Shown piece after piece: positions 10,061-13,689 of a stretch of DNA of 52,323 nt (positions are counted from its first letter, which is position 1; each line of letters begins with the position of its first letter). A program made the position numbers and the translations under genes. Under the pieces are notes generated by a model. The model was given only the letters and a program-made list of their open reading frames with translations. It was not told the origin of the DNA and did not search any database. Source of the stretch: a virus (taxonomy: Duplodnaviria; Heunggongvirae; Uroviricota; Caudoviricetes); IMG/VR virus record IMGVR_UViG_2563367002_000003, one strand, 5' to 3'.

Positions 10061-11340
10061 TCACTGGCCAGACAGCGATGCCAGCATGAAATAATGCAGC
10101 TCATCATTCCTTACAGACATTATTTCACCAGCCTCCCTGACCAGCTTGCGCTCTCCGGTATCGTATTCTTCCATTGTAAGGAGTCCGTCAGGACCAAGCT
10201 CCATACGAGTCCCGTAAACCACTTCATATTCCGCCGGATATTCATCACGACACAAAATACCGTAATCAAAAGCGTCCAGCCCTTCCTCAGAGAAGACCTT
10301 CTGTACGTCCTGAGCAATCACTCCTACATGCCATCTGGCTGCGTTCCCTTTGCTGGACACTGCATCTCTGAAACGGAACCGACAGATATACCCGAGCAGC
10401 TTTCTGGCAACCCTTTTTTCTGCATCCGACAGAATTGTTTCGTCCTGTTTATGAGTCCGGTCTGATGTACTGATACTTCCCGTAGCTGAATAAACCTGTG
10501 CGGGTCGCCATGAGGCATAACCGATCGAATACGTATTATCTGTATAAGGGCGGAGATTTCCTGATGAATCTATGCGCCATCTCTTTTCTCCTCCTGTGGC
10601 ATTTGCATCCTGATTCGTTGCAAAATCAATCACTGTCGCTGACCTGAACACAGATGAACCACCGCCAATTACCAGCGTGTTATTCCCCTCTGATGCCTGT
10701 TGGTCAACTACCAGTATTTTATCCTGATTTTTACCTGAACCACTTTTCGAGGCAGCGATAATACGATTAAACTGATCCTCACCATCGCTCTTTTGTGCGA
10801 TGGTGATAACATTGGACCAGATTGCCTCTCTTTGTCGCTGAAAACCATATTCTCCGCTGTCTGTAGTGACAGCTTTATATTTTATTCCACCTTCAGCTGA
10901 CTCCTGCGTTATATAGAATGTCTGGTTATTAGCATTCTTGATGAACACATAATTGTCAGCAGGAATGTCATTTCCACTCAGATCTTTAATCGGTGTCGTG
11001 GTTGTATGCAGACAAAACCATTTCTGACTCACAGAACGCATATATGCCAGAATTTCAGACAGGGATGTGAATACCGTCCCCAACACCGGGTTTACCAACC
11101 CCTGGGCACTACGGGGAAATGTTCCAATACTGGCATGAGACACATCAAACCCCGTGTACAACCAGGCTGCCTGACGAAAATCAATAGCATCTCTGCCAGT
11201 ACTGAACTCTTTCATCAGAACAATTCCTTTCTGATAAGCCTGTGGTAACCCACGCTCCAGAAAGATATAAAGCGAATATATACTGCCGCCGTCGTCAGAA
11301 ATACAAATTCCTTCGTTCTCAATGCGCGAAGGTGTAAAAC
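10061..11340 (-). pseudogene. tail-fibre gene, C-terminal fragment (S74-type intramolecular chaperone domain), separated from N-terminal part by IS911
   Basis: C-terminal residues SDAEKRVARKLLGYICRFRFRD...WHVGVIAQDVQKV resemble the self-cleaving chaperone domain of tail fibres/endosialidases; track ORF reads through into IS sequence; frame is continuous with 12591-13689 once IS and one TSD copy are removed. Confidence 0.7.
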
Positions 11341-11412
11341 TGAAGTGGTTTACTGAATTTGGCCACCTGAACAGAGGTGATATGCTCACCTCAGAACAAC
11401 ACAGGTGCCATA

Positions 11413-11715
11413 ATGAAAAAAAGAAATTTCAGCGCAGAGTTTAAACGCGAATCCGCTCAACTGGTCGTTGACCAGAATTACACCGTGGCAGATGCAGCCA
11501 GCGCTATGGATGTCGGCCTTTCCACAATGACGCGATGGGTGAAACAATTACGTGATGAGCGGCAGGGAAAAACACCAAAAGCCTCCCCTATTACCCCGGA
11601 ACAAATTGAAATCCGTGAGCTCAGGAAAAAGCTACAACGTATTGAAATGGAAAATGAAATATTAAAAAAGGCTACCGCGCTCTTGATGTCAGACTCCCTG
11701 AACAGTTCTCGATAA
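11413..11715 (+). CDS. IS911 OrfA (transposase N-terminal HTH protein)
   Basis: 100 aa from ATG at 11413 ([47 protein letters not shown]...), HTH plus leucine zipper as in IS3-family OrfA. Confidence 0.85.
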
Positions 11716-11741
11716 TCGGGAAACTCAGGGCGCGTTATCCT

Positions 11742-12560
11742 GTGGCCACTCTCTGCCATGTGTTCGGGGTCCATCGCAGCAGCTACAAATACTGGAAAAA
11801 CCGTCCTGAAAAGCCAGACGGCAGACGGGCTGTATTACGCAGCCAGGTACTTGAACTGCATGGCATCAGCCACGGCTCTGCCGGAGCAAGAAGCATCGCC
11901 ACAATGGCAACCCAGAGAGGCTACCAGATGGGGCGCTGGCTTGCTGGCAGACTCATGAAAGAGCTGGGGCTGGTCAGCTGTCAGCAGCCGACTTACCGGT
12001 ATAAACGTGGTGGTCATGAACATGTTGCTATCCCTAACTACCTTGAACGGCAGTTCGCCGTGACCGAGCCAAATCAGGTGTGGTGCGGTGATGTGACCTA
12101 TATCTGGACGGGTAAGCGCTGGGCGTACCTCGCCGTTGTTCTCGACCTGTTCGCAAGAAAACCAGTGGGCTGGGCCATGTCGTTCTCGCCGGACAGCAGG
12201 CTTACCATGAAAGCACTGGAAATGGCATGGGAAACCCGTGGTAAGCCCGTCGGGGTGATGTTCCACAGCGATCAAGGCAGTCATTATACGAGCAGGCAGT
12301 TCCGGCAGTTACTGTGGAGATACCGGATCAGGCAGAGTATGAGTCGGCGTGGAAACTGCTGGGATAACAGCCCAATGGAGCGCTTCTTCAGGAGTCTGAA
12401 GAACGAATGGGTGCCGGCGACGGGCTATGTAAGCTTCAGCGATGCAGCTCACGCAATAACGGACTATATCGTTGGATATTACAGCGCACTAAGACCGCAC
12501 GAATATAATGGTGGGTTACCACCAAACGAATCGGAAAATCGATACTGGAAAAAACTCTAA
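11742..12560 (+). CDS. IS911 OrfB (DDE transposase catalytic region; expressed as OrfAB by -1 frameshift)
   Basis: 272-aa ORF in the -1 frame relative to orfA; integrase-core motifs (WCGDVTYIW ... [10 protein letters not shown] ... [15 protein letters not shown]). Confidence 0.8.
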
Positions 12561-12590
12561 CTCGGTGGCCAGTTTTTGTTGACCACTTCA

Positions 12591-13689
12591 AACCCTGCCT
12601 GGTAAGCACATCTATCATTTTTTGGGGATGAAGAATGGATTCCTGCTGCTTTACTCCATCCGGAGAAAAGACCTTAACCCCCTGAAACTGGTTAAATCCG
12701 GCTGATGCCCCGGTATTAAAATAGCCACCATAAGAACAGGCAATATAATCGTCTCCCACAGCAATTCCCTGACGTTTTGTGAAGCGTCTTGCATAGCTGT
12801 CTGTGCTTTCCGTGATATATCCGGAATCATGCAACGGTAATGTGAATGTCCCTGTCCGACGAAACTGAAAATCATACACCGCAAATACTGTGCGGGTGAT
12901 CAGGCCTCCCACTTCCGGCGCTGACTGTTCAACCACCCAGCGGTTTTTACGATAGCTGAACTGGTTGTAAACACCGACATCATGTTCATCAATTAACGGC
13001 AATACTGAACCAGAAATTGCCCCATCAAGCGAAAACTGTTTCAGTAATCCATTTTCTCCTGACATGAACAAACGTAATCCACCGTAATCCGTTGTCACCA
13101 CAAGGCCTTCGCTGACAACGCCACGACCTCCATTATCGACATAATAATATCCCTCATATTCGCCGGATGTTGTGTACTGAACTATAACGTTCCGTGTCTG
13201 CTTTGGCTCAACGGTATAACTCAGATAGATTTTTTCTCCTGTCACCACAAATCCCTGTGGATACATATATTCCGCACCAGACTGAGCAGCCAGCACCGTA
13301 TCGTAGTCTGGGAATAATAACGGCAATTCCATTAAGACACTACGGGAATGGTTAGTGTACAGATTGTTCAATGAACCAGCTTTTACATCCTGTAACCCCA
13401 GATTTTCAAGAGCGCGTTCTACCGTGCCATCCGATTTGATATCGCCAAACGGATTTTTGCGGCTTAACAGCAGCGCACGAAGCGCGGTAAGCAGCTGGTC
13501 GTGCCGCGCCTTCTCCAGACTGGCACCGGAGGCCTCCACCACGCTGCAAAGTTCTTCCTGCAACATGTCAAAGTAGTCATCATCCAGATCGGTGGCAGGC
13601 GTGCCGGTCTGGGGGTTACCACGGGTAAAACCGTTCTTACCCGCGCCGAACTTATCCTTCTGCGCGGTTTTCGTGTCTATACGATGCAT
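12591..13689 (-). pseudogene. tail-fibre gene, N-terminal fragment
   Basis: ATG at 13689 ([26 protein letters not shown]...), phage tail-fibre-like N-terminus; ORF runs into the IS911 right end at 12590. Confidence 0.7.

Follow-up and report, generated by a model that had tools for sequence, protein, structure and literature searches.

Whether a prophage can still release infective particles after a single insertion sequence (IS) has entered its tail fibre gene is the question raised by IMG/VR virus record IMGVR_UViG_2563367002_000003 (Duplodnaviria; Heunggongvirae; Uroviricota; Caudoviricetes), the whole 52,323-nucleotide (nt) stretch of which is referred to here as the window. A first-pass annotation, made from the sequence alone, had placed a complete copy of IS911 in this gene and proposed that the prophage may still lyse cells or package DNA but should lack adsorption function. 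Our preferred reading, to which we give a probability of roughly 0.8, is that an active copy of ISEc52 entered the single receptor-binding fibre gene of an SfV-like temperate myovirus residing at serU, and that the resulting particles would not adsorb.

The insertion and the interrupted gene

The fibre gene is read from the minus strand and is present in two parts, a 5′ part at 12594–13689 (codons 1–365 plus 1 nt) and a 3′ part at 10061–11340 (codons 366–791 plus the stop codon). Between them, at 11341–12590 on the plus strand and thus in the opposite orientation to the gene, lies a complete IS911-like element of the IS3 family, 1250 bp long and flanked by a duplication of the target trinucleotide AAC, the left copy at 11338–11340 and the right copy, bordering the right end of the IS, at 12591–12593. 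When 13689–12594 was joined to 11340–10061 on the minus strand, the product was a 2376-nt open reading frame (ORF) of 791 amino acids (aa) with a terminal stop only, identical to the uninterrupted gene of Escherichia coli Ecol_AZ146 at 2376/2376 positions. Only a 3-bp duplication restores the gene, and an equivalent check of duplication length was made at a second insertion, site B, described below. The earlier prediction of an in-frame product of about 790 aa therefore stands, as does that of a simple insertion: comparison with IS-free relatives gave an empty site at 100% identity, an intact target duplication and undiverged flanks. No IS-free relative was found to carry the whole of the window prophage, its early region being common only to strain AHB10, which has the same IS, while genomes of sequence type 131 (ST131) match the late region only.

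The left inverted repeat (IRL; 11341–11380, plus strand; TGAAGTGGTTTACTGAATTTGGCC...) and the right inverted repeat (IRR; 12551–12590, plus strand; ...GGCCAGTTTTTGTTGACCACTTCA) both begin TGAAGTGG and are imperfect, 26/40 positions of the left end being the reverse complement of the right. Imperfect repeats ending 5′-TG...CA-3′ and a 3-bp target duplication are as in the IS3 family, and IS911 itself makes 3-bp target duplications. Inside the element, orfA (11413–11715, plus strand) encodes a 100-aa protein with an HTH_Tnp_1 domain (Pfam PF01527, E 6e-14), whilst the orfB frame (11742–12560, plus strand) encodes a DDE/rve catalytic domain (Pfam rve, E 1e-31). A programmed −1 frameshift heptamer, A AAA AAG, is found in frame with orfA at 11664–11670 (plus strand), and a −1 shift at this point gives a fused OrfAB of 382 aa which ends at 12560; two overlapping frames joined in this way are IS3/IS911-like. 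An OrfA of 100 aa and an OrfAB of 382 aa are also the organisation of IS911 (PMC2909936). OrfA, the heptamer and OrfAB are all intact in the window copy, and the preferred reading is further supported by the 100% identity of this IS to many other copies.

The name given to the element did not survive the comparison with its relatives. In 5426 complete E. coli genomes, copies 100% identical to it are labelled ‘IS3-like element ISEc52 family transposase’ by the Prokaryotic Genome Annotation Pipeline (PGAP), whereas copies labelled ‘IS911 family’ are only ~94% identical; alignment with one of the latter, from BL21, gave 1177/1250 identical positions (94.16%), and IRL positions 9–11 read TTT in the window element against CAC in the IS911-type IRL. 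By ISfinder naming practice, elements sharing a name have about 95% nucleotide identity or more, a value which the alignment with the PGAP-labelled BL21 copy does not reach. ISEc52, a name which rests on PGAP annotation and not on an ISfinder entry, is thus the best designation for this element, which is closely related to IS911.

The fibre-gene copy of ISEc52 in ST131 isolate 42 has an IS30 inside it at 334/335, just past the frameshift heptamer. Position 334 may be a recurrent IS30 target, since ISEc52/IS911 matches in many other genomes are also interrupted there.

The fibre protein

The term ‘tail fibre’ used in the first-pass annotation is apt insofar as this is the fibre gene of the tail module, but its product is predicted to be a propeller-type receptor-binding protein and not a classical fibre. 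The protein is modular: an SfV/Mu-type anchor for the baseplate is followed by a predicted five-bladed beta-propeller, then by a stalk and finally by a Peptidase_S74 chaperone. Within the anchor, residues 1–149 are about 71% identical to SfV orf21 and to the SfII ‘short tail fiber’. The predicted propeller, with an adjoining beta domain, occupies residues about 112–529 (10850–13356, minus strand) and is interrupted by the IS, whose cut point between codons 365 and 366 falls inside it; the fold was read from a monomer model, made with AlphaFold2, of a homologue (P0001) that shares 94% identity with the joined protein.

An S74-type domain had been proposed for the C-terminus, and both Pfam and PDB sequence matches bear this out. 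The intramolecular chaperone covers residues 658–791 (10064–10465, minus strand), with Peptidase_S74 (PF13884) matched at residues 658–720 (E 1.3e-9; 38.6 bits, the gathering cut-off being 22), and the matches to PDB entries 4uw8, 3gud and 3gw6 are confined to this C-terminal region. The Ser-x4-Lys pattern is present as a putative cleavage site, S658 with K663 in TSDRTHK; S658 and D659 are nearly invariant across the homologue alignment, and S658 aligns with the residue at which the released chaperone chain of GA-1 (3gud) begins. In the K1F endosialidase, T5 pb1 and the GA-1 appendage the S74 chaperone is required for trimer folding, before self-cleavage.

The distal module (residues about 116–786) shares 37–46% identity with tail proteins of T7-like Kayfunavirus and other phages, and in a wider protein collection it is found fused to unlike N-termini, namely P22 head-binding, T7 fibre, tail-collar and Gp66-type. 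Labels on such homologues suggested that the protein might be an endosialidase (endo-N-acetylneuraminidase) tailspike, a candidate which the modelled fold excludes, the six-bladed sialidase propeller being absent from it. As the PDB sequence matches do not extend beyond the C-terminal region, the chaperone domain alone is the probable source of the ‘endo-N-acetylneuraminidase’ labels on Kayfunavirus homologues of 37% identity.

Annotation of the gene is also misleading in genomes without the IS, where PGAP splits the intact 791-aa ORF into a pseudogene (‘StfP, incomplete’) and a 672-aa ‘tail fiber domain-containing protein’. This split is an annotation artefact which hides the full-length gene.

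The serU prophage

By its gene content the serU prophage, an E. coli element of about 42 kb, is an SfV-like temperate myovirus with an HK97 head, a Mu-like tail and lambdoid control. It is bounded by a 63-nt direct repeat of the 3′ part of tRNA-Ser(cga), the two copies of which (9270–9332 at one end and 51342–51404 at the other) are 97% identical; the tRNA-Ser(cga) gene, serU, lies at the latter end (51343–51432, minus strand) and adjoins the integrase gene at 50265–51290, which is accompanied by a DUF4224 partner. The head and tail module is collinear with those of SfV, SfII and SfIV, at 94–97% DNA identity over ~17 kb, and the tail genes have the same lengths as in the deposited phage vB_EcoM-720R4. 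Baseplate genes are found directly upstream of the fibre gene at 13693–15326 (minus strand), one Mu gp48-like (13693–14277; Pfam PF10076) and one gp47/J-like (14268–15326; Pfam PF04865). No gene lies between the fibre gene and the prophage end, and the tail module has no other fibre gene; because the fibre gene is terminal, the IS is without polar effect.

Genes for control and replication are present in the form of a repressor (helix-turn-helix (HTH) plus S24), a P22-type Cro, a CII-like protein, a full-length replication initiator and Q, and those for lysis and packaging as holin, lysozyme and Rz, followed by HNH, TerS, TerL and the HK97-type head. The genes for lysis and packaging look intact, in agreement with the capacities that had been ascribed to the element. 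A review of gene content and annotation revealed no lesion in the prophage other than the IS, and the structural, lysis and replication modules contain no further annotated pseudogene.

Consequences for the phage particle

If our preferred reading is correct, an active ISEc52 copy would have inserted between codons 365 and 366 by copy-out/paste-in, the mode of transposition of the IS3 family (PMC7780238), leaving a 3-bp duplication. As it stands, the 5′ part of the gene reads into the right end of the IS as an ORF of 417 aa (12436–13689), so that translation would end after 365 native and 52 IS-encoded residues. The truncated product would keep the baseplate anchor and lose half of the propeller, together with the trimeric stalk and the S74 chaperone at the C-terminus. 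A lysogen is predicted still to be able to induce, replicate, lyse and assemble DNA-filled particles; these would have no working receptor-binding protein and are predicted not to adsorb, because the product is truncated in this way and the prophage has no other fibre gene. Disruption of a prophage receptor-binding gene by an IS is an ordinary kind of prophage decay.

Some considerations weigh against this reading, in which the loss of adsorption and infectivity is a sound inference from the truncation. The reading would fail if adsorption were rescued in trans, with a fibre from another prophage fitting the baseplate so that infective particles were still made: many E. coli prophages have an N-terminal 100-aa anchor of this StfP/SfV type, a DNA relative being found in about 1870 of the 5426 genomes, and a relative recognisable at the protein level in another prophage could possibly complement the defect. 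However, the absence of a second tail fibre gene, on which the earlier proposal depended, was upheld in the window prophage, where no other was found, and a DNA-level search (word-11 blastn with the first 450 nt) located the anchor region at one place only in each of five IS-bearing complete genomes; as regards the remainder of the genome, this was a test of the near-twin AHB10 and not of the window's own genome. We regard such rescue as very improbable.

The integrase raises a further objection, in that PGAP calls it ‘frameshifted’ in every examined carrier of this serU prophage type (AHB10, S8, AZ146 and FDN-4, ST131 strains and a chicken isolate being among the carriers). If the flag is real, the prophage was already excision-defective before the IS arrived, and the insertion would be neutral decay of a cryptic element with no change of function. 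Persistence of the IS-split allele across several isolates, and the gain by AHB10 of a further ISEc52 in the same prophage, are in keeping with such an order of events. However, a prior defect has only the integrase flag to rest on, and this appears to concern only the extreme C-terminus and was not treated as a lesion. The 341-aa integrase ORF is complete from MGRRRK... through the catalytic-Tyr region, with Pfam integrase domains matched, and is identical over 341 aa to that in phage record ON470580; it is 100% identical to that of phage record vB_EcoM-606R7 and 99.7% to that of vB_EcoS-689R5. No paper was found for the phage records ON4705xx–ON4706xx. To this may be added the structural, lysis and replication modules, free of other annotated pseudogenes, and the late region, which is 99.89% identical between the two lineages with insertions described below against 99.19% for the chromosomal flanks, suggesting recent mobility. 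We therefore consider a prophage that was defective beforehand unlikely, and retain the view that the insertion probably disarmed a phage which otherwise looks intact.

Distribution of the insertions

The fibre allele was found at ≥99% identity in 58 of the 5426 complete genomes, mostly ST131. It is interrupted in five of these and uninterrupted in about 53, in which the gene is 100% identical to the rejoined ORF. The insertion seen in the window (site A) occurs, among complete genomes, only in AHB10 (UK, blood), which differs from the window by one base over the first 41.8 kb. That all five IS-bearing genomes descend from one event was considered and rejected, as four of the five carry the IS 600 bp away. 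In these, S4 and S12 (Sweden), FCI29 (Colombia) and ST131 isolate 42 (Armenia), an ISEc52 identical to the window copy lies 600 bp further 3′ in the fibre gene, at codon 565/566 (site B), in the same orientation and again with an AAC duplication. Because the site B prophages differ from those of site A in the position of the IS, in the early region and in the chromosomal background, the sequences point to at least two independent insertions of ISEc52 into the fibre gene.

Exact-sequence look-ups of the protein products gave 998 contigs for the intact 791-aa protein, 11 for the 417-aa N-terminal fragment of site A (including strains KTE87 and HVH 20), 29 for the 384-aa C-terminal fragment of site A and 18 for the 190-aa C-terminal fragment of site B. 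As the fragments recur on multiple contigs, both insertions are inherited within lineages and not private to single strains. The insertion in the window had been described as recent, which holds in the sense of zero sequence divergence, but not in the sense of an event confined to one isolate, since it is inherited by several (AHB10, KTE87 and HVH 20; at least 11 contigs).

The fibre clusters (P0069–P0081) also include many partial draft-assembly proteins that stop at ...QKMID or ...DQFNRI, 19–25 nt short of sites A and B, and that could either come from additional genomes with the IS or be artefacts of assembly. In AHB10, agreement with the window breaks off at 46128–46647, a segment of 520 nt whose counterpart in AHB10 has 399 nt, and over the last 5.7 kb (46648–52323) identity is 99.58%; a recombination patch is suggested by this divergence.

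Two hits in one gene raise the possibility of more than random accident, either because the gene is a preferred target of ISEc52 or because loss of the receptor-binding protein is advantageous. The two independent insertions are 600 bp apart within a single 2.4-kb gene, share the element, the AAC duplication and the orientation, and lie in prophages whose early regions and chromosomal backgrounds differ. For a preferred target in particular, site B abuts ACCACTT, which resembles an IS terminus, and in AHB10 a stretch of about 50 kb contains three copies of ISEc52, suggesting local hopping. However, these are two events only, about 53 of the 58 complete genomes and 998 contigs keep the gene intact, and prophage genes are generally tolerant of ISs, so that some clustering is to be expected; on balance we think it unlikely that anything beyond chance is at work. 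We are a little more doubtful still of the specific form of this idea, that the receptor-binding gene is a recurrent ISEc52 target through a sequence or structural hot spot, or that lysogens have been selected to disarm the phage yet keep its cargo (RosmerTA, the nuclease-ATPase candidate and hokD).

The preferred reading, of one active ISEc52 copy disabling the only receptor-binding gene of the phage, has little significance beyond bookkeeping: a prophage which looks complete to automated tools can be non-transmissible through one IS. The name of the element is corrected, and the ‘endosialidase’ labels on relatives of the fibre are probably misleading. The second independent hit in the same gene is mildly interesting; if the two were to reflect targeting or selection, they would offer a small natural example of the domestication of a defence-carrying prophage.

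Neighbouring genes

The prophage carries a RosmerTA-type defence pair at 37223–38979 (minus strand), in which a 381-aa HTH and M78 peptidase protein matches RmrA (E 5e-102) and the 204-aa protein upstream matches RmrT (E 7e-10). A 932-aa protein encoded at 39579–42377 (minus strand) combines a Cap4/LmuA-like nuclease region at its N-terminus with an AAA ATPase domain and, at its C-terminus, a SEC-C motif; the gene for this nuclease-ATPase is a candidate defence gene. In AHB10 the gene is split by the second ISEc52 of that prophage, with a GTA duplication, a copy not present in the window. Within the replication-initiator gene an exact 21-nt direct repeat, GCGTGACATTTCGTGACGCGC, occurs at 43713–43733 and 43983–44003, these being possibly origin iterons. 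Three tRNA genes lie between Q and the lysis genes at 34269–34518, as in Stx-type lambdoid phages; they are Arg-tct, Arg-tcg and one with a CAT anticodon, called Met by ARAGORN and Ile by PGAP.

Positions 1–9270 of the window are the right-hand part of a separate genomic island, inserted exactly at the tRNA-Ser attachment (att) copy of the prophage and encoding a ComEA-family protein, RepL, two H-NS-like proteins and DUF6387. In AHB10 the island reaches zinT, and among its genes there are tcpC, those for TIR and macro-domain proteins, PilV and MobA, the last of which is interrupted by another ISEc52; no third att copy was found at its far end in that genome. The island is absent from ST131 genomes, in which zinT adjoins the prophage.

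Comparison with known phages and insertion sequences

The window element resembles IS911, the prototype of which is from Shigella dysenteriae, in its length of 1250 bp, its TGAAGTGG termini, the sizes of its proteins (OrfA 100 aa, OrfAB 382 aa), the A AAA AAG heptamer and the 3-bp duplication, and departs from it in the 94.16% identity to the BL21 IS911-family copy and in IRL positions 9–11. The prophage is likewise close to the SfV/SfII/SfIV-like temperate myoviruses, in which the fibre gene also follows gp47-like and gp48-like baseplate genes. Unlike in these phages, the distal part of the window fibre is replaced by the propeller and S74 chaperone module, and no separate tail fibre assembly gene follows; at the corresponding position vB_EcoM-720R4 has YfdL and assembly genes.

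For the modules of the fibre itself the likenesses are with phages of other kinds. The predicted five-bladed propeller resembles those of the receptor-binding proteins of Staphylococcus phage phi11 (Gp45; PDB 5efv) and phage NF5 (9m7x), although sequence identity is only 11–13% and these are siphoviruses of Gram-positive hosts. The C-terminal S74 domain matches those of the K1F endosialidase, the T5 L-shaped fibre pb1 and the GA-1 neck appendage (E 1e-16 to 1e-13), whilst the body of the window fibre, unlike that of the K1F endosialidase, is predicted not to be a six-bladed sialidase.

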